This document shows, piece by piece, positions 15,453 to 27,134 of a stretch of DNA of 32,000 nucleotides (positions are counted from its first letter, which is position 1; each line of letters begins with the position of its first letter). The translations under genes were made by a program, and so were the position numbers. The notes beneath the pieces were generated by a model that saw only the letters and a list, made by a program, of their open reading frames with translations, searched no databases and had not been told where the DNA came from. Source of the DNA: an archaeon (GTDB lineage: Archaea > Asgardarchaeota > Thorarchaeia > Thorarchaeales > Thorarchaeaceae); the NCBI GenBank assembly GCA_024275415.1, contig JAJRZD010000127.1, positions 6,902 to 38,901 of the forward strand, written 5' to 3'.

Positions 15453-16499
15453 ATGAAAGTGGCGATTGTATCAGGTAACACTTCATCAATGATAGAAGAC
15501 GCAGATACAATTGCAGAGTTTCTCAACAACGGGAGCTTCGAGATTGTCAAGAGGGGGACAGTCAGTGCGAGTTCCAAGAGTATCGGACGGGAACTAACAA
15601 AATATACACCTGACATCTTAATTGTGATCGGCTCGGACAGGACACTGTTGAATGTGCTTCTTTCGTTGGGAGAGGTATCAGTCCCTGTTCTGCCGGTGGC
15701 TTCGAGGGGACATCCAGGTTTCCTGTTCGATGTCACATCATCGGACTTTGAACAGATTGTTGATGACATCTCCGAACACAAATGGACTGAAGAACGACGT
15801 ACCAGATTCGTTGCAAGTATCGGTAAAAAAAAGACGCCTCCATTCCTCAACGAGATAGCTATCTTTCCCCGGAGGACTGCCACATTGCTTCGATATTCGC
15901 TCTTTCTTGATGACGAGGAATTCTGGCGAGATGGGAGTGATGGTGTGATCGTATCGACTCCCACAGGTAGCACGGCATATGCGATGAGTGGAGGAGGCCC
16001 TATCATTCTGCACCCGGCATGTGTCTTCAATATCGTATCGGTGAACAGCGGCAACCCCGCCCGGAAACCTCTAGTAGTCCCAGATGACATCCGTGTTGAG
16101 ATCCGCAACCTTACGAGTTCCGTGTCAATAGATGCAGTTGTTGACGGGCAAACTAGACTCCCTGTGAAAGAGGGCAATGTTGTGTTCCAAAAATCACATG
16201 CTGATGCAGTATTTGTCAAGTTCACTGATGAGAGAGTAGCAGCGCTTCATGGTAAGTTGATGAGAAAAACTGAGGTTCGAGATGAAAGAGCTTCAGACCT
16301 TCCACCAAGCGCGAAACTTGTGTTGAAAGTCCTTGAATACCAAGGGTCGATGACCCAGAAGCAGATAATTGACGAAACCAATCTACCCCCAAGGACTGTT
16401 AGATATGCTCTGTCCCTCCTAGTTTCAGAGAATCTTGTGAAAAAACAGATTTCGCTTCGAGACAGCAGGCAGGCTCTTTATGCAATCAAAGAGGGATAA
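15453..16499 (+). CDS. nadK: NAD kinase-family domain fused to a C-terminal winged HTH
   Basis: GSDRT (degenerate GGDGT), LNEI, DGVIVSTPTGSTAYAMSGGGP, VDGQ; C-terminal LPPSAKLVLKVL..G.MTQKQI..ETNLPPRTVRYAL...RDSRQ wHTH. Confidence 0.87.
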   Translation: MKVAIVSGNTSSMIEDADTIAEFLNNGSFEIVKRGTVSASSKSIGRELTKYTPDILIVIGSDRTLLNVLLSLGEVSVPVLPVASRGHPGFLFDVTSSDFEQIVDDISEHKWTEERRTRFVASIGKKKTPPFLNEIAIFPRRTATLLRYSLFLDDEEFWRDGSDGVIVSTPTGSTAYAMSGGGPIILHPACVFNIVSVNSGNPARKPLVVPDDIRVEIRNLTSSVSIDAVVDGQTRLPVKEGNVVFQKSHADAVFVKFTDERVAALHGKLMRKTEVRDERASDLPPSAKLVLKVLEYQGSMTQKQIIDETNLPPRTVRYALSLLVSENLVKKQISLRDSRQALYAIKEG

Positions 16500-16528
16500 T
16501 TCCCATTGCTGACTGATGATGTGGTTAT

Positions 16529-18670
16529 ATGAATGATGTGAAAGACCTGATACCAAAAACTGAGAACCCAGTGATCCTTGACTTGTTCTCAAATGTGCTT
16601 CGGTCAATGGAATTGATACTAGCAGGGAAGTCATCTGACGAAACCGGGCCATTTAACGAGCCAATCGAATTGCTTTCCTACGCACTCGCAAAAAAAGCTT
16701 CATATGATCTTGAAAAATTCACGACAGCGACCTCAACGGACAAGAGGCTTTCCCTCATATTTAGGAACGCTCTTGATGGTGGCTCTGCCGGGAAGATTGT
16801 AGAAAGCTTGATCCTCGGGACTTATGGGTTCGTTCTCGGCTCCTACAATGATGAGGATTTCAGGTATCTCTATCGCTACACTCTGAAGTTGCAAAGGGGA
16901 TCTCGTAAATTTCAGGATTGGATAAAGAGGGCTCTTTGCTTTGTTGTGGCAATCCAGCACTCGTATCCACAGGAGGTTCTTCATCAAATCAGGGAGTGGA
17001 TCAGGTTCCTAGGGGCACCACTCTATCCTCCATCTGATTTCCAAGACCACTGTGCCACATTTGGCATTGACATCGAACCCATACTTTCTGATGACGAATA
17101 TCGCTCGGTGCTGTCGCTGCGTTCCCGTCCTGAATACCTGGAGGAGGCAATCCTAAACCGTCCCTTCGATGAAGTGTACAGATCCCTGAAATCGTGGACG
17201 CCTGATGGACTCCTACGCGATGCTTACAAGATTTCTGAGAAGCGGATGTACGAGAAGTTACAAGACCATATCAACGATGATATGAGCATCGCACAAGTAC
17301 TCGAGGTCTCAGAGCAGTTCTTCAGACAGAAAGGGTTCCAGGTCGATGACTCTACCGCGATTCCTGTGAAGCTTCAAAGGCTCTCCCGACCGCCTCCGCC
17401 AGATGTGATGGATCCTGCAATCTTTGAGCGGATACCACAGAAATTACGTGTCAACCTACTTCCTGCCGTCACATATTCCACCTCGATAAAGGAAGTCGAG
17501 ATTATCTTTCTCGGCGGGCCTAGAATTGGACGAAGTGGTATCCTAATCAAGACCTCAACTGGAGGTGTTCTCCTTGACTATGGTATGTCAGTAGCTAATC
17601 AAATGATTCCGGAATGGGTTCCCGAACTTGAAACCATCGATACGATCTTGGTGTCTCACAGCCACTTGGATCACGTTGGCGGTCTGCCAATTATCTATGA
17701 CACCTTTGAAGGCAAGTGGTGTAGCACAGGCATCACTGGGGCAGTCACAATGAAACTTCTTGAAGATGCCCTGAAAATCGGAACTCCCCTCCCTCCGAGA
17801 AAGACAGACACGCTGGATAGGGTGTCACGCTTTACGAAAGACAATGTAGAGGTGGTTTCTCGAAGCCATGTGACCCTCGAAGTCGGCTCATCCAGCGAGT
17901 TGGCTCCAGGGATACTCGTGACTCCGGTTGACGCATGTCACATCCCCGGCAGTGTGGCATATCTCCTAGACATTGAAGGGCTCAAGATACTGTACACCGG
18001 CGACTTCAACCTCGACCAGTCCGTCCTTTTCCCAGGTGCTTCATTCCCCACTGACCCCGATGTGTTGATCTTCGATGGCACCTATTGGAGTAGGGAGGAC
18101 TTTGATAGGGCTAAGGTCTCTCAACAACTGATGAATATTATCGAGAACTATGGTCCGGTCATCATCCCAACCTTTGCAGTGGGACGCTCTCAAGAAATCC
18201 TGACGATACTTGACAAGCTCGGCATCACGAACACCAGAAACGTGATGGTAGCGGGGATGGCAGAGGCAGTGACCAAGATGACAGGCTTCAAAGGAAAATG
18301 GCATGGACTGAAGAAGAACAAGGTCAATCTGGAAGAGGAGGATGTTCTTGTGGCTGGTGGAGGCATGATGGACGGAGGTTTCGCAAAACACCATTTCGAG
18401 CAGCACCGTGACAATAGTAAGGCAGCGGTCGTCCTCTGTGGATACCTTGCTCCACGAACTGCAGGATGGAATCTTATTCATGGTTATGAACCACATCAAT
18501 GCCATGTGGAATATGCCCGACTAAGCGCTCATTCGTCGGCATCGAGGCTTGGTGACTATATAGGATCCTGTAAAGGAAAGCGGATCATGGTTCATACTCC
18601 AGTTGCTACAACACCGAAGAATCTGACAATCCCACGATTAGAGGAACGGATAAGGCTCAAGGTGCCCTAG
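16529..18670 (+). CDS. beta-CASP metallo-beta-lactamase ribonuclease with about 320-aa N-terminal helical extension
   Basis: LLDYG, HSHLDHVGG, CHIPGS, YTGDF, FAVGRSQE, GGMMDGG, CGYLA..T.G, RLSAHS, VHT. Confidence 0.85.
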   Translation: MNDVKDLIPKTENPVILDLFSNVLRSMELILAGKSSDETGPFNEPIELLSYALAKKASYDLEKFTTATSTDKRLSLIFRNALDGGSAGKIVESLILGTYGFVLGSYNDEDFRYLYRYTLKLQRGSRKFQDWIKRALCFVVAIQHSYPQEVLHQIREWIRFLGAPLYPPSDFQDHCATFGIDIEPILSDDEYRSVLSLRSRPEYLEEAILNRPFDEVYRSLKSWTPDGLLRDAYKISEKRMYEKLQDHINDDMSIAQVLEVSEQFFRQKGFQVDDSTAIPVKLQRLSRPPPPDVMDPAIFERIPQKLRVNLLPAVTYSTSIKEVEIIFLGGPRIGRSGILIKTSTGGVLLDYGMSVANQMIPEWVPELETIDTILVSHSHLDHVGGLPIIYDTFEGKWCSTGITGAVTMKLLEDALKIGTPLPPRKTDTLDRVSRFTKDNVEVVSRSHVTLEVGSSSELAPGILVTPVDACHIPGSVAYLLDIEGLKILYTGDFNLDQSVLFPGASFPTDPDVLIFDGTYWSREDFDRAKVSQQLMNIIENYGPVIIPTFAVGRSQEILTILDKLGITNTRNVMVAGMAEAVTKMTGFKGKWHGLKKNKVNLEEEDVLVAGGGMMDGGFAKHHFEQHRDNSKAAVVLCGYLAPRTAGWNLIHGYEPHQCHVEYARLSAHSSASRLGDYIGSCKGKRIMVHTPVATTPKNLTIPRLEERIRLKVP

Positions 18671-20637
18671 GCTACTATTTCAAGTACACCATCCAAGACG
18701 AGCATTGTAGCAACGAATTTCATGGCTGCAAAGCTTAGCTTCAGCTTCTTCACTATATCCCCCAGTGGAGTTTTTCCATCACAAAGATTCACGAATTTGA
18801 TGACGATTGGGCCGTAAGGTTTCACATGTTTCTCAGGATCTGGCTCTGATATCTTCTTCAGAATGACACTAGTATCCAAATCGACTTGGAAAGTGATCCA
18901 ATCAAACTTCTTCATTATCTGGAGACAGCCGAGAACCTTTTCACGGGGGAGGTCAAGAGAACGCACCAATCCTCCCACAGTCAGTGTGCCATCAATAGCA
19001 GTCTTTACTTCAACAAGAGACCGTCCAACGTCCCTATTGGCAAATGGGAGTCCCCGTCCTGCTTCGCGTGCTCGAACCATATAGTCCAAGCTGATAGGAA
19101 CCAGTGGGATTTCACCGAGTACGTTGAAGACGGATGTTTCAAAGACGGTCATATCCCCATTCCAATCAGCCCAAATTTCATGGAACATATCTTCAATCTC
19201 AACTAGAAGGCCAGCCATCTTCTGACGGTATAATTCTTCTTCATTGTCATTTGTCACGATGAGAGCAAGTACGAAATGCTTTGATTTTTCCACCATGACA
19301 AGATTCCCTTCATGCTCGATGGTTTCCAAGGCATCAGTGGCGTCTGTGGTTCCTTCTGCGGATGGGTCGATTCCACCAAAGGAATCAAGAGCAGAAATCA
19401 GGGATGCTACCGAGTTCACATCAATCATGTTGTCTGAGTAGTCTAGGTGATAGACAACATTGAACATACCATTTTGTTGGATCAGGAGTATCAAGCTTAT
19501 GACTTTGGTTGGCAATTGGATTGGCTCGACTTCAGAAGCTACTGTGCCATCAGAAGAGGACTCGATGGCGGTATCACTGTCGCCTACTTCTGAAGCTAGC
19601 GGGATGCCACTGGGTTCGTGTGAAGAGGGTGCTTCTCGTCCTGTGTCTGACCCGTCCTCCTGATAGGGAACTGTTTCATAACCACTCTGATCATGAGGAG
19701 TCCTAGCAGAATCCATCCCCGCCTTGTCAACATCCTCGGTCTTTCGGCGAACGGTAATCATCTCACTGATTGGTCGATCGGGGAGTTGAACCCCTACGGT
19801 CTTTGCAGCCACTTCCAACATGAAGCGGATGAACTCCTCTCGTCGGGATTTGTTCGTTGCGACCATGGGAAATGTAGGAGCTCCTAGAAGTCGTTTGATC
19901 TTCTCAGCTCTCATTGATTCAGGGAGATCCTGCTTATTTGCCACAATGAACAAGGGGACTGCCGGAGCCTCTTTCTTGATATTCCTGAGAAGCGTCTTGG
20001 TCTGCATCACATTTCGAAAAGAGCTATCAGTGATGAGGAATATCACATCGGTTCCCTGGAAATAGAAGCTCCAGAGGTCTTGAAAGACTGCCTGTCCTGC
20101 AAAGTCCCAGATTGTAACCAAAAAAGTGCCGAACTGAATTGTTTCAGACGAGTCCACTGCAACATTGATTGTAGGCACATACCCACCGGGAGCTGGCTCC
20201 CTCCCAAAAAGGAGGCGAAGCAGAGTACTCTTCCCGACACCACCACTTCCAACGAAGGAAATCTTGAAACGGGTGAAAATGAGCTCACCAAGGATGTCCT
20301 CAATGTTGTCCTTGATATAGCTCATCGAGTTGCCTCTCAGCGCGGTGGCGACACGTGCAGAGCCTTCACGAATCTTGTATTGAATCACACGATCCTCATC
20401 CCGTCCATCAGTGACGAATAGAAGAAGCAGGTCATCACTGACTGGAGCGTGAAATACCTTATGAACCTCGCTCACGAAGACAGGTGTGTCAGGGGACAGA
20501 CCTTCTGTGGTATGTAAGTCGTGGTATCCCCGTAGGAATTCTTGGATGTCCTCCTGCCCGAACTCGATCTTCCAGAACCTTGACCTCACCACAATGTCCC
20601 CAGTTTCAGTTTCTATCAGTATGACATTATGGATCAT
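18667..20637 (-). CDS. Multidomain small GTPase: longin - Ras-superfamily (Arf/Rab-like) G domain - acidic linker - longin - 2x wHTH
   Basis: G1 GSGGVGKST, G2 PTI, G3 WDFAGQ, G4 NKQD; longin-like beta2-alpha-beta3-alpha patterns at the N-terminus and after the linker; two C-terminal DG-x-x-T/P wHTH repeats; SD AGGTGA. Confidence 0.88.
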   Translation of the reverse strand: MIHNVILIETETGDIVVRSRFWKIEFGQEDIQEFLRGYHDLHTTEGLSPDTPVFVSEVHKVFHAPVSDDLLLLFVTDGRDEDRVIQYKIREGSARVATALRGNSMSYIKDNIEDILGELIFTRFKISFVGSGGVGKSTLLRLLFGREPAPGGYVPTINVAVDSSETIQFGTFLVTIWDFAGQAVFQDLWSFYFQGTDVIFLITDSSFRNVMQTKTLLRNIKKEAPAVPLFIVANKQDLPESMRAEKIKRLLGAPTFPMVATNKSRREEFIRFMLEVAAKTVGVQLPDRPISEMITVRRKTEDVDKAGMDSARTPHDQSGYETVPYQEDGSDTGREAPSSHEPSGIPLASEVGDSDTAIESSSDGTVASEVEPIQLPTKVISLILLIQQNGMFNVVYHLDYSDNMIDVNSVASLISALDSFGGIDPSAEGTTDATDALETIEHEGNLVMVEKSKHFVLALIVTNDNEEELYRQKMAGLLVEIEDMFHEIWADWNGDMTVFETSVFNVLGEIPLVPISLDYMVRAREAGRGLPFANRDVGRSLVEVKTAIDGTLTVGGLVRSLDLPREKVLGCLQIMKKFDWITFQVDLDTSVILKKISEPDPEKHVKPYGPIVIKFVNLCDGKTPLGDIVKKLKLSFAAMKFVATMLVLDGVLEIVA

Positions 20638-20754
20638 TCATTGTTCACCTATCTTCTTGGATTCGATTGCGCTCAAAACGTATATTCAACTGTTCTAGTA
20701 AAACTATCCTAATAATCCACAAGATAGACTATGAAGCTTTGGTCGATGTACCTT

Positions 20755-22440
20755 TCACTCCAGGATCACAATTCCTTTTGAATACAGGTCTGAAATCACA
20801 GAAATAAGCACACTCTGCTGAATTCCAACTTCCTCACTAATCTCCATAACCGTGTGTTTCCCGTCCATCATTGCCGTAATCTTATCTATATGTGAATAGA
20901 GTTTACGAAGGGATTCATTGACCTCGCCCACCAGCCTCGGCGTATCAGAAGGGTCTAGGTTCAGCTTCAGACCGATGCAGCCCATTGCCTTGAGAAAGTG
21001 AATTGCTCCCAATGTCATATTGGGACCACTGCCAGATGATAGACGTTGGATCTCAATCGAGCCGTCAAGACTCCCCCAGACAGCCTGTAGGAAATCCCGA
21101 ACCTCCCTCGATTCAAAGCGATTCCAATCGGGCTCGTGTATCCGCACAGGACACATCTTGCCAGGAATCTCTTCTGGCGGGAGTGTTGCAAGGATCTTGA
21201 GCGTGAACGGAGGTGAAGAATATGGATCCTCTGAACTCTCGACGAACTCAGGAGATTCGTCTTTCCAGAGATCCGGAAGGAACGAGAATTGTCGGCGGAG
21301 TGACTCTACATCATCGACGACCCCAGTGACCAGCGTGAAAATCAGGTCATCGACCTCGATAAGGGCATATACCAAATCCTCGACTTGCACTACTGAGGTC
21401 TTGTCAAACTCTGCACTGCCCATCTTAAAAGAGGTCACTGCTGCAACTATGTTGGGAGCTCTACGATGTGCCTCAGCCTTCGGGACGTAATAATACGTGA
21501 ACACAGGGTTACCCGTTGATTTTTTCACAACAAAAAAGGCCTGATGTCCCGTAGGTCCTGCTGGGATAATCGCACTTTCATCTGTTGGTTGTGTGTCAAT
21601 TGAGGCGTCCATGGGCCATCGTTCCAATGCCAGATCAGGATGCATATCAGTCAACCCCATTATCGCCAAGACTGATACCAACAGGTAAGAAGCGTCCTTG
21701 GAAACTGAATCACAGAGTTCGATTTGGAGATCCGTTTCATACCTCCTTGCGTGTTCCAGTTCGTCGTCAGAACCAGGAGCAATAAGGATCGGGACTGAAA
21801 TCTTCGACCTGATACCTTCCACAATCCCCTCAATGACTGACCTGTCAGGTAGAGGCCTCCCAAGAACAAGTATAACTCCTGCGGGATTGTCTTCTACAGC
21901 AATATCTGGGTCAGACACAACTGCTGAGAATGTGTACTTGGCAGCCCTGATATTGTAGGGTCCGATGGCAATATGACCGTGAACCTTCATGTGCTTCTCA
22001 ATATTGCTTAGAGCACCACCGGTGATGTTCTCAAAGGACGGCTCTTTATCCGAGATGAAGACCAGATAGAGACCTCTCCTCAATAGGTCGCCAGCCGTAC
22101 TAGAAAAGGTCTTTCTGATCTCACGCATTCCATGTTCCTTTGCAAGATGAGTGAGGCGCGAAGCCAGCTCCGCCACCTGACGTTTTTCTTCTTCAGAGAA
22201 CAAAGAAGTACTGGATACGACAACAAGGAGAGCCTTACCAGCGACCAAGTGGAGACAGACTCCTCGACCATCTTCTAGTTCGAAGACATGGCCGTTCTCA
22301 AATGCCAGCTCCTGAAGTAGCCCAAAATACGACTCGATAATAGGTTGTATAGGGAAACTCTCTGTGTCATTATCCACAAACGAGACCGATGCCCATGGCT
22401 TAGCACCTACTAAGTCGTATAGTATCGATCTCTCTATCAA
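20755..22440 (-). CDS. Longin - degenerate G domain - longin - 2x wHTH protein (paralogue of 18667..20637)
   Basis: Same domain order; longin HQAFFVVKKSTGNPVFTY..; C-terminal LDGSIEI and MDGKHTVMEISEEVG wHTH repeats; no G1/G3/G4 motifs. Confidence 0.75.
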   Translation of the reverse strand: MIERSILYDLVGAKPWASVSFVDNDTESFPIQPIIESYFGLLQELAFENGHVFELEDGRGVCLHLVAGKALLVVVSSTSLFSEEEKRQVAELASRLTHLAKEHGMREIRKTFSSTAGDLLRRGLYLVFISDKEPSFENITGGALSNIEKHMKVHGHIAIGPYNIRAAKYTFSAVVSDPDIAVEDNPAGVILVLGRPLPDRSVIEGIVEGIRSKISVPILIAPGSDDELEHARRYETDLQIELCDSVSKDASYLLVSVLAIMGLTDMHPDLALERWPMDASIDTQPTDESAIIPAGPTGHQAFFVVKKSTGNPVFTYYYVPKAEAHRRAPNIVAAVTSFKMGSAEFDKTSVVQVEDLVYALIEVDDLIFTLVTGVVDDVESLRRQFSFLPDLWKDESPEFVESSEDPYSSPPFTLKILATLPPEEIPGKMCPVRIHEPDWNRFESREVRDFLQAVWGSLDGSIEIQRLSSGSGPNMTLGAIHFLKAMGCIGLKLNLDPSDTPRLVGEVNESLRKLYSHIDKITAMMDGKHTVMEISEEVGIQQSVLISVISDLYSKGIVILE

Positions 22441-22490: not shown

Positions 22491-23738
22491 TCAACTTTCT
22501 CTTACCTGCTTCCGCAGGAATTCTTCAAAAGTGATATGGCCTCGCATAAAGCGCTGGTAGTTGCTCTGAATCCATTGTACGTCGTATGGCATCTCGTGAC
22601 ATCCTTCACCCGACGCTATCTCCGGCAGATCCGAGATTGCCTCACCGACCGAGATAGGATCCATCCTGTCGTCGTCTTCCCTTTGCGAAGCCGGATCATT
22701 CCTTCGACGGTCTTTGATAGCACTGAACATTGGTCGGGGCGGTTCGAGATAGTCACTAGTCCTGCTAGCAATGATGAATATCCGTCTTCTACGCTGAGGA
22801 ACACCGTACTCTTCGGCTCCCAACTGGAACCACTGAGGCAAATATCCAATCTCTCTGAGAGAGGATAGAATCCTATCTAAAGCTGCGCCCTTGTTTCGAA
22901 TTCGGAGACCTGTCACGTTCTCAATCAACACAAACTCAGGACACAGAGATTCCACCATCCTGAACATAGAGAGTATGAGATTGTTCCGGGGATCCTCTTT
23001 GTCCCATTTTCCAGCCATCGAAAAACCCTGACAAGGAGGACCTCCAGCAAGAAGTTGCAATGTCCGTCCTCCAAGATGCGACTCAACCTGTGCAATGAAT
23101 TCCTCTATTTCATGGGCTTTGCTGAAGTCCACATCAATAACCGTTGTCCCCTCATGGTTTGCAGTATAGGTCGCTCGCATGTGAGGCTCTTTCTCTCCAG
23201 CAATGATGACCTCATGCCCTGACTCTCGAAGCCCGCATGACAATCCACCGGCTCCTGAGAACACATCGACACATAACCCGGGTTTTACAAGTCCACCTAT
23301 AGCACGTGCAAGCAATGGTGGGACTGCATTGCCAATCTGTTTGTACATGGACGAGTTACTTCCTAGGAACCTGTAGTCGTCAGGAAATGACTGCAACCTG
23401 GCTGCCTCCCTGAACGAGATTAGACGGTCCTGAGCTGGGTGGATGAACGTGCCATTGCCGGGGCGATTGAAGTAAGTATTAATCGTATAGCTCGGAAGAT
23501 CAGGCCGGAGTCGTCCATAATAGGTCGTGCGTCCGCCCGTACTACGAATCCGCATGACGCGAGCTGACCTCTGTGCAACAGACAAGGGGATGTCCTGCCA
23601 GTTCCCTCCGGGACGAATTGAGCGCACCATTTGGACATCAAGCTCACTAAGATTAGCCGAAACATGATTGTAGAGCACTGTAGACTCGTTTCTTGTCTTC
23701 TGCGACTTGTTAGTGAGCATCATCATCAGATACCACAC
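22491..23738 (-). CDS. dcm: Circularly permuted DNA (cytosine-5) methyltransferase, M2.Eco31I/Alw26I/Esp3I type; likely start ATG about 23726
   Basis: Order TRD - IX (SFREAARLQSFPD) - X (QIGNAVPP) - I (DVFSGAGG) - IV (GGPPCQGFS) - VI (ENV) - VIII (YGVPQRRRR). Confidence 0.92.
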   Translation of the reverse strand: MWYLMMMLTNKSQKTRNESTVLYNHVSANLSELDVQMVRSIRPGGNWQDIPLSVAQRSARVMRIRSTGGRTTYYGRLRPDLPSYTINTYFNRPGNGTFIHPAQDRLISFREAARLQSFPDDYRFLGSNSSMYKQIGNAVPPLLARAIGGLVKPGLCVDVFSGAGGLSCGLRESGHEVIIAGEKEPHMRATYTANHEGTTVIDVDFSKAHEIEEFIAQVESHLGGRTLQLLAGGPPCQGFSMAGKWDKEDPRNNLILSMFRMVESLCPEFVLIENVTGLRIRNKGAALDRILSSLREIGYLPQWFQLGAEEYGVPQRRRRIFIIASRTSDYLEPPRPMFSAIKDRRRNDPASQREDDDRMDPISVGEAISDLPEIASGEGCHEMPYDVQWIQSNYQRFMRGHITFEEFLRKQVRES

Positions 23739-23818
23739 AACATAGTTTCCTGCATGAAAAGATTTCCTCGATTACTTTCAATGTTACTTAGAGAGAGGAT
23801 TCGACTTTTGATAAGGGG

Positions 23819-24286
23819 TCACAATGAACGCCTAAAGCGATTCATGTCGGGAATGTCAAGAAGGGTATAACCACTCCCATCCCAATGTAAGATACGATAC
23901 TCGGTGCTATGCCCGAGCATTGAGCCGATTATGAATGCTGCAGAAACAGGACAGGCAAGCACAACGGCAAGTGAATGACCTCCAACGCTCTTCCCTACCT
24001 TATGGATCAGGACAGCAGCTCCCTCAGACCATTGTGTGATTTCTGACGGTTTAAGCTGTTTCGGGACTCCAATCTCGCCCACGATACAGTATCCTGCAAG
24101 AGTGACATCTCGCTTTGTGTCATGACTGAAATTGACCACGATCGCAGGGGGACGACTGTCCAAGTCTGAATAGTTGAAAGGAACTAAAACCCCCGTTTTC
24201 AACCGTTTGGCAAGTCCACTGAATCTAGTCTTGAATGTATATATGCTATTCATGATAGAAAGAATGATAGTAATAGCATCAGGCAT
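23819..24286 (-). CDS. Stand-alone SAVED-like (C-terminal lobe) protein A
   Basis: VVNFSHD...LAVVLACPVSAAFIIGSMLGH..YRILHWDGSGY matches the SAVED C-lobe pattern; clear paralogue of 24439..24903. Confidence 0.65.
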   Translation of the reverse strand: MPDAITIILSIMNSIYTFKTRFSGLAKRLKTGVLVPFNYSDLDSRPPAIVVNFSHDTKRDVTLAGYCIVGEIGVPKQLKPSEITQWSEGAAVLIHKVGKSVGGHSLAVVLACPVSAAFIIGSMLGHSTEYRILHWDGSGYTLLDIPDMNRFRRSL

Positions 24287-24438
24287 ATCCCACTAAACTC
24301 CTCATGACAGTGAGATATTCCTTCTCATTAATCTTTTTCTGAACAGCTCACATGGGAATGTGAAGGCGGAAAGTGAAAATCTGTGTCCGGTATCTCCATA
24401 AGGAAGAAAGCTGATTCAGCATTGACGGAGATACACCG

Positions 24439-24903
24439 ATGTCAAATGATCTTGAACAAGAAAAAGAGAAGATAAAGATAGGACATTTGGAAGTAACGGG
24501 TCTCTCATCCCTTGTTACCTCACTTTCCGATGAAAAGGAATCATCAACTCTGTTGGACACCAATGCGGAGGTTGTAATAGGTGTGAGCCTGTCCAGACCA
24601 GTGCTTCAAGATCTCGAAAGAGAAGGATACAGCGTAATTGCTGACATTGGACCTCCTCGTCAGATAGAAATATCAGAAATGACTGGGCTTGCAGAGGACG
24701 TAGCAATCATAATAGACAAGCTGAGAAGGATGGTAAAATGCAAAAGCATTACCTTGGTGTTATCATGTCCCACTGCTGTTGCCTTCATGATTGGCAGCTT
24801 GCTAGGACATCAGTTCACTTATCGCCTGTTGCATTGGGACAATGGATATGTACGTGTGCCAGACTATGGCATCAAACGTTACAGGAAAGAAATCAAAGGA
24901 TAG
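24439..24903 (+). CDS. Stand-alone SAVED-like (C-terminal lobe) protein B
   Basis: VIGVSLSRPV...ITLVLSCPTAVAFMIGSLLGH..YRLLHWDNGY; GGAG SD. Confidence 0.68.
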   Translation: MSNDLEQEKEKIKIGHLEVTGLSSLVTSLSDEKESSTLLDTNAEVVIGVSLSRPVLQDLEREGYSVIADIGPPRQIEISEMTGLAEDVAIIIDKLRRMVKCKSITLVLSCPTAVAFMIGSLLGHQFTYRLLHWDNGYVRVPDYGIKRYRKEIKG

Positions 24904-24944
24904 TAGTAACGTTCACTTCAGAACGAACAGCCAATAGAACGGGA

Positions 24945-27134
24945 TTACATTAGTTCTTGGATTTCCTTAACCGTGTTCTTGTCATTCTTACGATAAGCCA
25001 AGACCTTCGAAGCCTCGTTCCTATTGAAACCATAGAGGGACAATACCAACGCCTCAATCATGGGATGTGAGTGGTTAGAGGGTTTTCGAATGGCACCCAC
25101 AAGAGATGCTATGTGAGTCGCCCGTTCCTCATTGTTCTCAACAAACGGGTCAGCAACTGGTAAACTAGCAAGCTCACGATTAGAAACGTGGTTGTTCGAG
25201 CTTGCAATGGTGAATCTCCAGTTAAGCAGCTCCGAGTTCAGCACACCCATAAGGTAATACAACACCCAGTCAGGAGTGCCATTCTGTAGAACAATATAGT
25301 TGCAAGAGTTTGCCAGCACTATTCGGGGCTTGACGGGAGCGAACTTCAGCCGCCAGTGATTCTGTTGGTTTGACACCTGCTGACAGGCAATCCTCAGTGA
25401 TGTGATATGCTTCATTCGGGACGAGTTCCTCTTTGAGGAATAGAAGGCATTGTAATCGACATGTTCAGAGTTATCACGGAACTTTCCTGACAAAGCGTAC
25501 CGACCAATACCAGAGCCTCGGAGCAACAGATAAGAACCGGATCCCTTGTGAATGAATTGTTTGTCAAGTGTCAAATCCAATTCGCCTCGATGGTTCCTGA
25601 GCCAATGATAACTTGAAAGGGGGGCGTGCTTGTGCATCTTCCGAAGCAGTTTCCAGTCATGGGAATCGACCCGGGGGATTGCGTAGGATTCACCAAAGAC
25701 ACGTTTGATGTCTTGCAGTTTCAACCGGTACGATCTTGTACCATGTTTCACACCTGACGAGCCCATGCCAAACTGTACCTTGAATGCCCTTGTTGTGCCT
25801 GTTCTCTGGACATGACCTATGCAGACAGATTGCGTGACTTGCTCGAACAGACGGGCGGACTCTGGGAACTCTGTGATAGTCAGTATACAGTTGTTGACGA
25901 GCAGATCCTTTCGTAACTTGGATGCGGATGCGTCAGCAAGAAGAGTGGATGGCACGATGAATCCAATCTCACCGTTTTCCCGTGTGAGCATCAACGCCCT
26001 TTCGATGAAGAGATGATATGTGTTGATGGAGGCTGAAATGCTTGAAGCATACTCTCCAGACCGTCTGAAATAGAGCAGGTCTTCTTGCATCTGGAGCTTG
26101 TGATCCTCATACTCGTCCATATTGATGATTCTTGAACCAGCCCGTAGCTTGGTTCGCATAAACTCAGCTCTATTGGGTTTCAATCTGGAGTATGGTGGAT
26201 TGAACAACAGGATATCGAACCCACCCCTTTCGAGTTGCTCGCTAAACTCATCCTTCCATTCGAACGGAGTTCTTGAACGCGGCTCTGCAAAGAACCTCTC
26301 ATGAGACCCTGTGACTCTCCAGCCTCTGAGATTGATCAGTGAATTGCCTACTCTGAACTGTTCATCCCGGATAGCACGGTGGGATGCCAGAGAAAGGGAG
26401 GTCTTGGCAATTTCCAATGCGGCCGGGTCAATATCAACACCACAGATGTTCTCGGATATTCGGGTCAATGCTTCTGAGGTTGCTTGAGGAGAGAGAAGTG
26501 ACGAGAGCGAATCCCTGATTGCCTCGAATGCAGCAACTAGGAAGATACCTGAGCCACAGCAGGGATCTAGAACCGACAGGTCATCAAATCCTGACAGGGA
26601 GTGAGCTTGATTGTGACCTATCCGGCTCAAGTATGAACCGACGGTCTGACGAGCAATAAACCGGGCAATAAGAGCAGGGGTGTAGAAGATGCCCCGTAAT
26701 CGTTTCTCCAGAAACCCCGTGCTCCCAGAGCTATAGGTTGTACCTGAGTGGATTAGTCCTAACACTTCAGATAACATAACTGCATCAAGACTGGCGGTGG
26801 TATTAGATTCCGGTTCGAACTCGTCCTGCAGTATCTCCCTAATGACCTTCAACACGAGATCTTTGTCAACGGATTGGCCTTTGGACAGAGAAGACATCTC
26901 ACGGATGGCAAGACAGTCAGTCGAGGTCGTAGGTCTCTGCCACGACGTGATGACCGCATTCAATGCAAGCAAACGGGTTGCCTCTAATGCCTCTGGGGAG
27001 GGATCCAAGATTTTCCGGATTGTTTCATGCGATTGCTTGATGAAGTGGACTGCGATGCCTGAAGATGTGTTGAATTCACTGAGCATTGTCGGTTGTATGA
27101 CCATGCCTGAACAAAAAGGATTCTCACATAACAT
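24945..27134 (-). CDS. N6-adenine DNA methyltransferase, Alw26I/Eco31I/Esp3I family (gamma class)
   Basis: GIFYTP, motif I LDPCCGSGIFL, motif IV NPPY, family-type TRD motifs RGELDLT, CQQVSN, LANSCNYI, LLNWRF..SSNNHVSN. Confidence 0.9.
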   Translation of the reverse strand: MLCENPFCSGMVIQPTMLSEFNTSSGIAVHFIKQSHETIRKILDPSPEALEATRLLALNAVITSWQRPTTSTDCLAIREMSSLSKGQSVDKDLVLKVIREILQDEFEPESNTTASLDAVMLSEVLGLIHSGTTYSSGSTGFLEKRLRGIFYTPALIARFIARQTVGSYLSRIGHNQAHSLSGFDDLSVLDPCCGSGIFLVAAFEAIRDSLSSLLSPQATSEALTRISENICGVDIDPAALEIAKTSLSLASHRAIRDEQFRVGNSLINLRGWRVTGSHERFFAEPRSRTPFEWKDEFSEQLERGGFDILLFNPPYSRLKPNRAEFMRTKLRAGSRIINMDEYEDHKLQMQEDLLYFRRSGEYASSISASINTYHLFIERALMLTRENGEIGFIVPSTLLADASASKLRKDLLVNNCILTITEFPESARLFEQVTQSVCIGHVQRTGTTRAFKVQFGMGSSGVKHGTRSYRLKLQDIKRVFGESYAIPRVDSHDWKLLRKMHKHAPLSSYHWLRNHRGELDLTLDKQFIHKGSGSYLLLRGSGIGRYALSGKFRDNSEHVDYNAFYSSKRNSSRMKHITSLRIACQQVSNQQNHWRLKFAPVKPRIVLANSCNYIVLQNGTPDWVLYYLMGVLNSELLNWRFTIASSNNHVSNRELASLPVADPFVENNEERATHIASLVGAIRKPSNHSHPMIEALVLSLYGFNRNEASKVLAYRKNDKNTVKEIQELM

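Follow-up and report, generated by a model that had tools for sequence, protein, structure and literature searches.

An archaeal small GTPase and its adjoining full-length pseudoGTPase paralogue, a predicted heterodimeric switch in Thorarchaeaceae

The question raised by this locus is whether an intact small GTPase and the adjoining protein that shares its domain order, without the nucleotide-binding motifs, work as one unit. The locus lies in a window of 32,000 nucleotides (contig JAJRZD010000127.1, positions 6,902 to 38,901, assembly GCA_024275415.1, from an Asgard archaeon of the family Thorarchaeaceae) and comprises two neighbouring genes, coding for a GTPase of 656 amino acids (P0001) and a partner of 561 amino acids (P0002). 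The paralogy of the two proteins, the loss of motifs in the partner and the conserved adjacency of the genes are demonstrated here, as are the folds, of which that of the partner's middle domain is less certain. On the complex model, the two products probably form one heterodimeric switch with a single active site (probability about 0.65). Both open reading frames are confirmed on the minus strand where a preliminary description, made from the sequence alone, had placed them:

18667..20637, minus strand: gene of the 656-amino-acid, putatively active GTPase (P0001), an open reading frame with an ATG start; it codes, from the N-terminus, for a longin and an Arf-like G domain, then a disordered linker, a second longin-like domain and two winged helices
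20638..20754, minus strand: intergenic spacer between the P0002 and P0001 genes, 117 bp, sequence read
20755..22440, minus strand: gene of the 561-amino-acid pseudo-GTPase paralogue (P0002), an open reading frame with a TTG start; domain order as in P0001, without nucleotide-binding motifs

P0001 and P0002 are full-length paralogues with the same domain order. The family alignments comprise 52 sequences for the GTPase and 59 for P0002, and hhalign of the two profiles gives 98.3% and E 2.4e-14 over 546 columns, matched in order and end to end, which bears out the common domain order proposed earlier for both genes. In hmmsearch, positions 1-231 of the P0002-family profile give one continuous match to P0001 residues 1-238 (independent E-value 1.9e-10, single-sequence search space), with high posterior support through the G domain. 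The same profile also matches the divergent real GTPase P0253 (profile positions 13-226, E 3.2e-9 among 1.84 billion representatives), and its alignments pass through the G domains of P0001, P0253 and P0254. Equivalent stretches in P0001 and P0002 are IQFGTFLVTIWDF with IAIGPYNIRAAKY, DVIFLITD with GVILVLG and VPLFIVANKQD with VPILIAPGSDD; the middle domains had been aligned by hand before, and that alignment is reproduced by hhalign and hmmsearch alike.

Compared domain by domain with hhalign, the winged helices give 97.7% and E 1.7e-12 and the N-terminal domains E 7e-7. The match of the G domain with the pseudo-G domain is moderate (E 1.5e-4 over 65 columns) and that of the second longin-like domains weak (E 0.011, not significant by sequence alone); the equivalence of the latter is accepted because of their shared position in the domain order and the models. 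All 12 off-diagonal control comparisons stand at E 0.011 or worse. The tail of P0002 matches the GTPase tail in BLASTP with 24% identity over 121 amino acids (E 0.014).

The partner is divided as follows:

22081..22440, minus strand: N-terminal longin of P0002 (residues 1-120), with a D-L-x-G-x-K motif conserved in the loop before strand 2
21607..22080, minus strand: pseudo-G domain of P0002 (residues 121-278)
21631..21759, minus strand: conserved face of the pseudo-G domain (residues 228-270), formed by alpha4, beta6, the end of alpha5 and a D-M-H-P-E/D-L loop; predicted GTPase contact
21166..21552, minus strand: second longin-like domain of P0002 (residues 297-425), followed by a near-invariant S-P-P-F-T-L-K-L-L-A-T-L-P-P motif
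20758..21165, minus strand: tandem winged helix-turn-helix of P0002 (residues 426-561), with weak Pfam matches to HTH_47, HTH_5 and TrmB

The motif census of this family finds GxxxxGK[ST] in 0 of 59 members and DxxGQ in one of 59, the position of that single occurrence being unchecked, with no DxxG at the aligned site. The position equivalent to NKxD (G4) reads P-G-S-D in nearly all members. The P-loop region of P0001 aligns with a variable stretch ending in a conserved S-G-x-A, and its WDFAGQ with a stretch that is not conserved. All this agrees with the earlier statement that the P-loop, DxxG and NKxD are gone from the 561-amino-acid protein. Judged from its sequence, the region of residues 121-278 is a pseudoGTPase, that is, a G-domain homologue with its nucleotide-binding motifs lost. 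D225, aligned to the D of NKxD, is nearly invariant, and P0002 might conceivably bind an unusual ligand.

The P0002 family contains 29 invariant columns and many near-invariant ones, its most conserved part being the second longin-like domain (mean majority frequency 0.70). It is a narrow family, with 50 cluster representatives at E <=0.001 in the profile search of 1.84 billion representatives, and its Thorarchaeota homologues are 35-55% identical. Compared by sequence with solved structures, P0002 gave chance matches only (E >1), and Pfam, NCBIfam and PADLOC returned nothing for it beyond sub-threshold winged-helix matches. Searches of a language-model atlas returned no usable match for the pseudo-G domain alone and only unnamed Asgard families for the C-terminal half.

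The GTPase is divided in the same order, with a linker added:

20278..20637, minus strand: N-terminal longin of P0001 (residues 1-120)
19768..20277, minus strand: G domain of P0001 (residues 121-290), with GSGGVGKST at 130-138, T156, WDFAGQ at 177-182 and NKQD at 234-237
19882..20022, minus strand: predicted pseudo-G contact surface of P0001 (residues 206-252), formed by the start of alpha3, the loop after NKQD and alpha4, from the interface list of the complex model
19516..19767, minus strand: acidic linker of P0001 (residues 291-374), poorly conserved (alignment columns without consensus) and predicted to be disordered
19093..19515, minus strand: second longin/roadblock-like domain of P0001 (residues 375-515)
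18670..19092, minus strand: tandem winged helix-turn-helix of P0001 (residues 516-656), with a weak Pfam match to HTH_47

By its motifs and profile matches P0001 is a small GTPase of the Ras superfamily, Arf-like in the G domain, with the full set of GTP-binding and catalytic motifs. Residues 122-253 match Pfam Arf (66.2 bits, cut-off 22.3), Roc (61) and Ras (51.4); the protein scores 63.7 bits with TIGR00231 small_GTP (cut-off 42.5) and 22.0 bits with Pfam Gtr1_RagA, at a cut-off of 22. The closest solved relatives are Arf1 chains (E ~1e-14). The likeness to Arf is confined to the G domain, because this domain is preceded by a longin of 120 residues and not by the N-terminal amphipathic helix of the Arf family. 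In the 656-amino-acid family GxxxxGK[ST], DxxGQ and NKxD are each present in 58 of 58 members, most columns of the G domain are invariant and identity across Thorarchaeota is 64-75%. The model of P0001 has a mean pLDDT of 70.7, with residues 296-373 below 50 and a poorly scored G domain, the latter probably due to a shallow alignment of very similar sequences.

Both protein families occur throughout Thorarchaeota, and the distribution of the pair was surveyed in 301 genomes sampled across the phylum. Full-length P0002 was identified in 71 of the 76 genomes of the window's taxonomic family and at full length in none elsewhere; full-length P0001 was identified in 74 of the 76 and in the only genome of a sister family. 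The P0002 gene lies directly upstream of the P0001 gene on the same strand, with a gap of 89-190 bp, in at least 58 genomes of the window's family, so the conservation of the pair, a check that the preliminary description had proposed, extends over one family. Other arrangements are an insert of 1.9-3.6 kb between the genes in four genomes of one genus, and location on different contigs in four further genomes. The pairing was confirmed at three distant loci (L001, L002 and L003). The identities of the two families (64-75% against 35-55%, over overlapping sets of homologues) fit a constrained enzyme with a looser scaffold.

The association of the two proteins was addressed with a complex model of the heterodimer built from residues 1-515 of P0001 and 1-425 of P0002, which end ahead of the winged helices, each with its own alignment. 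Three runs gave ipSAE values of 0.74, 0.74 and 0.70, and none of three controls exceeded 0.00. At least 96% of contacts are common to the runs, with a pLDDT of 78 for the partner. In the calibration of the predictor, 58 of 80 solved complexes and 2 of 110 mismatched pairs scored this high, counts that are only rough here because own alignments were supplied. The heterodimer suggested in the preliminary description is in this way predicted, with an interface.

The predicted interface joins P0001 residues 206-211, 218 and 239-252 to P0002 residues 228-270. On the GTPase side it comprises the start of alpha3, the loop after NKQD and alpha4, and on the other side alpha4, beta6, the end of alpha5 and the following loop. 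Confident contacts are only those from G to pseudo-G domain, with unlisted residues uncertain, those of the roadblock/longin domains included, and no confident longin-longin contact reported; switch I and switch II are left free. The confident predicted contact lies elsewhere than the roadblock/longin interface implied by the analogies with Rag and NPRL proteins that had been drawn for this pair. Mean conservation is 0.81 among the interface residues of P0002 and 0.54 elsewhere in its pseudo-G domain (permutation p = 0.0001). No member departs from L242 or D244, and at least 93% of members keep L228, R232, A259 and G262. Charge pairs were counted in 44 genome-matched pairs of P0001 and P0002, with R249-D244 present in 43, K246-D/E269 in 44, R208-D265 in 38 and R/K243-D/E269 in 38.

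The heterodimer and its interface are thus predictions of the model, from which we infer the logic of the switch and its output. The conserved acidic face of the dead G domain of P0002 would grip the live G domain on its basic alpha3/alpha4 side, immediately past NKQD. P0002 would then be held opposite the switch regions, with switch I and II free, and would act as a permanent scaffold, possibly also as an allosteric partner, because the contact is near the base-binding motif. Only one nucleotide state, that of P0001, would control the complex. The longin-type domains, four in all, may offer the switch regions a platform, and a downstream partner, either protein or DNA, may be bound by the paired winged-helix tails.

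The AlphaFold2 (AF2) model of P0002 is confident, with a mean pLDDT of 86.5. In Foldseek, chains of NPRL2, NPRL3 and Npr rank first for it (E 2e-7 to 1e-5); next come Rag/Gtr chains, a RagA-like structure from Asgard archaea and subunits of tri-longin guanine nucleotide exchange factors (GEFs); NPRL chains are also near the top for the P0001 model. This ranking fits the published description of NPRL2 and NPRL3 as a longin domain plus winged-helix repeats (PMC3747258), and both tails of the present pair consist of a longin-like domain and then two winged helices, in a paralogous pair, as in NPRL2/NPRL3. Pfam NPR2 and NPR3 gave no match at E <=10 in the C-terminal halves or in stand-alone relatives. 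Across the whole genome (92.9% complete) the best score with PF06218 (NPR2) was 10.5 bits against a cut-off of 27.5, and PF12257 (IML1/DEPDC5) had no match. The likeness is one of fold and architecture only, and a link to TORC1-type signalling would be an analogy without direct support. The GATOR1-like modules that had been proposed thus stand as to fold and architecture and fail as to Pfam NPR2 and IML1 matches.

Several points weigh against a heterodimeric switch. The interface is small, with 28-30 confident contacts, and no covariation across it could be read from the 44 pairs, the GTPase side being invariant. The conservation and the model share the same alignments and are not fully independent, and the binding of P0001 to P0002 is a prediction of the model. 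In the sister family, genome G112 (96% complete) encodes the GTPase at full length and no full-length partner, so that the GTPase can exist without it. In that genome the nearest relative of the partner tail is a stand-alone protein of 273 amino acids (P0251, in an open reading frame of 275 at locus L008), which resembles the tail of the GTPase (E 5e-24) more closely than that of the partner (E 2.5e-15). The middle domain of P0002 probably has a G fold in the model, as had been supposed, but on Z alone CheY receivers match it as well as G domains do.

In a rival reading the middle domain of P0002 is receiver-like (CheY/flavodoxin-type) and the two genes share only their longin and winged-helix parts. 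An atlas search does return a response-regulator cluster (TM 0.22-0.35), and NPRL2-like longins fused to two-component domains have been reported in Asgard archaea (bioRxiv 10.1101/2020.10.19.343400). However, the hidden Markov model and profile alignments run without interruption from the longin through the G domain of real GTPases, the comparison of the domains alone (E 1.5e-4) is better than every off-diagonal control, the model has an extra antiparallel strand pair typical of G domains, and GTPases align over 132-146 residues against 119-123 for receivers. Neither an acidic pair after strand 1 nor a lysine after strand 5 shows conservation and Pfam Response_reg gives no match at E <=0.1, so a receiver is very improbable here. 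Least credible of all is a decaying duplicate with no function of its own, an idea prompted by the loss of all catalytic motifs and by an evolution faster than that of the neighbouring GTPase and already contradicted by conservation: 71 of the family's 76 genomes keep an open frame of full length, with no internal stops in the listed full-length matches, the invariant columns and the confident model described above speak for a maintained protein, and the position and spacing beside the GTPase gene are conserved.

The main rival makes P0002 a transient regulator of the GTPase (GTPase-activating protein (GAP), GEF or GDP-dissociation inhibitor-like) acting through a longin, like NPRL2, FLCN, SMCR8, MglB and the TRAPP longins, and is considered unlikely, though a stable dimer with a regulatory effect on the GTPase would accord with it. 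Small GTPases repeatedly use longin and roadblock domains as platforms and as catalytic modules (PMC3747258, PMC10933270), and NPRL chains are the first matches of the P0002 model. In its N-terminal longin the loop before strand 2 is nearly invariant (D9, L10, G12, K14), with G-x-K conserved and G-P-K in several members, where GAP-type longins are reported to have their 'GP motif' (PMC12290439), and R106 is nearly invariant as well. Yet G-P is not the majority reading in that loop, no arginine finger could be placed, the confident predicted interface spares both longin domains and switch regions, and a purely longin-based regulator leaves the conserved face of the dead G domain unexplained. 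That the pair acts on DNA, together with two methyltransferases encoded upstream, is improbable; in that case the winged helices would be the DNA-binding parts, with an epigenetic or restriction-like activity gated by the GTPase. Its basis is the order of the two methyltransferase genes, the partner gene and the GTPase gene, kept in three distant Thorarchaeota genomes and in the window, and the two winged helix-turn-helix domains that end both proteins, with weak matches to DNA-binding families. It is opposed by the absence of PADLOC defence models matching P0001, P0002 or the beta-CASP nuclease encoded nearby, by the lack of a nuclease on the same strand, by the occurrence of the GTPase without adjoining methyltransferases in the sister-family genome, and, in contrast to defence islands, by a GTPase that hardly varies, is nearly single-copy and has stable housekeeping neighbours (NadA, CysS). 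Winged helices are also present in NPRL2/NPRL3 and FAM91A1, which are not known to bind DNA.

The heterodimeric switch with one dead G domain would have its significance in a GTPase-regulator pairing written into the genome: a near-invariant GTPase lies beside its dead twin across a family, with a specific and testable interface. Asgard archaea hold many small GTPases and longin/roadblock proteins, and the match between regulator and GTPase is rarely clear (PMC10933270). The pair would be a compact system of two soluble proteins for the study of the origins of Rag-type heterodimeric switches, and it also bears on those of pseudoGTPase scaffolds and of longin and winged-helix regulators before eukaryotes. 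A doubtful extension is that P0001 and P0002 are the surviving archaeal form of a protein with an Arf/Rag-type G domain and an NPRL2/NPRL3-type module in one polypeptide, with the two-subunit asymmetry complete and one G domain dead. If so, the logic of the Rag heterodimer and the NPRL2-NPRL3 pair could descend from one ancestral self-regulating heterodimer, later split into GTPase and regulator. The same genome also holds split forms, namely two longin-G proteins of ~310-325 amino acids and a tandem tail-like pair of 285 and 288 amino acids. Should binding fail, the finding would shrink to one more lineage-specific domain shuffle among Asgard signature proteins.

Among known systems, Rag/Gtr proteins (RagA/B-RagC/D, Gtr1-Gtr2) and the Asgard Rag-like fusions share with the present pair two paralogous subunits encoded together, each with a G domain and then a C-terminal roadblock/longin-type domain. 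The differences are that both Rag subunits bind guanine nucleotides whereas P0002 lacks all motifs; that the G domain of P0001 is nearer to Arf (66 bits) than to Gtr1_RagA; that the confident predicted contact is G/pseudo-G and that of Rag roadblock/roadblock; and that P0001 and P0002 carry an extra N-terminal longin and two C-terminal winged helices. The GATOR1 proteins NPRL2/NPRL3 (yeast Npr2/Npr3) are likewise a paralogous pair with a longin and then winged helices, and they heterodimerise. However, they have no sequence-level match to P0001 or P0002 and superpose with a root-mean-square deviation of 8-15 A, they act on a separate Rag whereas the module is here fused behind a G domain, and their partner DEPDC5/Iml1 was not matched in the thorarchaeal genome.

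Eukaryotic pseudoGTPases paired with active partners include CENP-M, AAGAB and the pG domains of p190RhoGAP. As in P0002, a G fold minus its nucleotide-binding motifs is kept as a protein-binding module; they are unrelated in sequence, and none is an archaeal full-length twin of an adjoining GTPase. The actinobacterial conservon is composed of the roadblock protein CvnB, the DUF742 protein CvnC and the GTPase CvnD. With MglA/MglB it combines a roadblock/longin domain, a winged-helix protein and a Ras-like GTPase, but as separate small proteins and with no dead G domain. Weak DUF742 matches were obtained with the stand-alone tail relatives (E 0.003-0.07), sub-threshold and to be read as a lead only.

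The general theme is already known. Asgard small GTPases fused to longin/roadblock domains have been published, as has an operon-encoded Rag-like pair of Lokiarchaeon MK-D1, predicted to be a heterodimer (Tran et al. 2024, PMC10933270). A likeness of Asgard longins to GAP longins has also been published (PMC12290439), and NPRL2-like proteins were reported in most Thorarchaeota genomes (bioRxiv 10.1101/2020.10.19.343400). A full-text literature search for pseudoGTPase together with Asgard found no paper, another, on Thorarchaeota in connection with GTPase, winged helix and longin, brought up nothing on this pair, and a recent structural-clustering preprint makes no mention of NPRL or GATOR. By these searches the conserved GTPase with a full-length pseudo-GTPase twin appears to be undescribed, and no description was found of a longin-G unit fused to an NPRL-like tail in both twins or of the G/pseudo-G interface.

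For P0002 the TTG start is borne out by 58 homologues whose sequences start at the same alignment column and by L7, D9, L10, G12, K14 and F21, nearly invariant in the family alignment. The recorded gene call is a protein of 540 amino acids (P0004) that starts 21 residues downstream of the TTG and would lose the first two strands of the N-terminal domain. The spacer contains an AGGTGA ribosome-binding-like site 8-9 nucleotides ahead of the P0001 ATG and an A/T-rich TTGAATATA box ~45 nucleotides upstream, which may be the ribosome-binding site and promoter of P0001.

The genes upstream of the pair are kept in the order N6-adenine methyltransferase (m6A), C5 methyltransferase, pseudo-GTPase and GTPase, on one strand and with gaps of 0-222 bp, in the three distant Thorarchaeota genomes (partner identity only 35-37%), as they are in the window. 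The features of this neighbourhood are:

22491-27134, minus strand: Eco57I-like m6A and C5 methyltransferase genes, with order and strand kept and 0-72 bp apart in L001, L002 and L003
23819-24286, minus strand: small SAVED-like gene, between the methyltransferase genes
24439-24903, plus strand: small SAVED-like gene, between the methyltransferase genes
15453-18670, plus strand: beta-CASP metallo-beta-lactamase nuclease gene (with a long N-terminal extension) and NAD-kinase gene

The two methyltransferases match different halves of one PADLOC type II methyltransferase model of 1036 positions (PDLC03237), at positions 221-634 and 644-1020. They appear to be the two parts of a bifunctional methyltransferase, fixed in a block that is syntenic across the family, and not a mobile restriction-modification island. 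A defence system, as suggested by these neighbours, was considered for the GTPase pair and found no support in PADLOC. In L001, L002 and L003 the methyltransferase genes are directly adjacent, with neither SAVED-like gene between them, so that the two SAVED-like genes of the window are a local insertion into the conserved block. The beta-CASP and NAD-kinase genes converge on the GTPase gene in 4 of the 4 genomes examined, with NadA beyond, and a beta-CASP gene does so in the sister-family genome too. A MarR-type winged helix is part of the NAD-kinase gene in the window and, as a weak match, in L003.

Relatives of single parts of the two proteins are encoded elsewhere. Two adjacent frames of 285 and 288 amino acids in the same genome match GTPase residues 435-652 (E ~1e-12) and look like a tandem stand-alone NPRL2/NPRL3-like pair, which may belong to the NPRL2-like family reported for Thorarchaeota. 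Stand-alone proteins of 256-284 amino acids, from the window's family and from other Asgard families (L005 in G211, L006 in G220, L004 in G269 and L007 in G075), are longin-like in their first half (weak matches to Pfam Fuz_longin_1, E 7e-4 to 2e-3) and/or end in winged-helix matches, and are relatives of the C-terminal half of both twins. Three shorter paralogues match only the longin and G half of the GTPase, in frames of 285-325 amino acids with 31-41% identity. The positions in the genome of the window (G000) are:

G000:C9:38936-39601, plus strand: frame of the tandem tail-like pair
G000:C9:39853-40509, plus strand: frame of the tandem tail-like pair
G000:C127:40562-41455, minus strand: longin-G paralogue, with a TAG inside the match according to the profile search
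G000:C107:17784-18665, plus strand: longin-G paralogue
G000:C28:43435-44235, minus strand: longin-G paralogue

Matches to the longin-G half in related genomes lie in open frames of ~330-720 amino acids, and family f12, elsewhere in the phylum, has 2-4 longin-G matches per genome.

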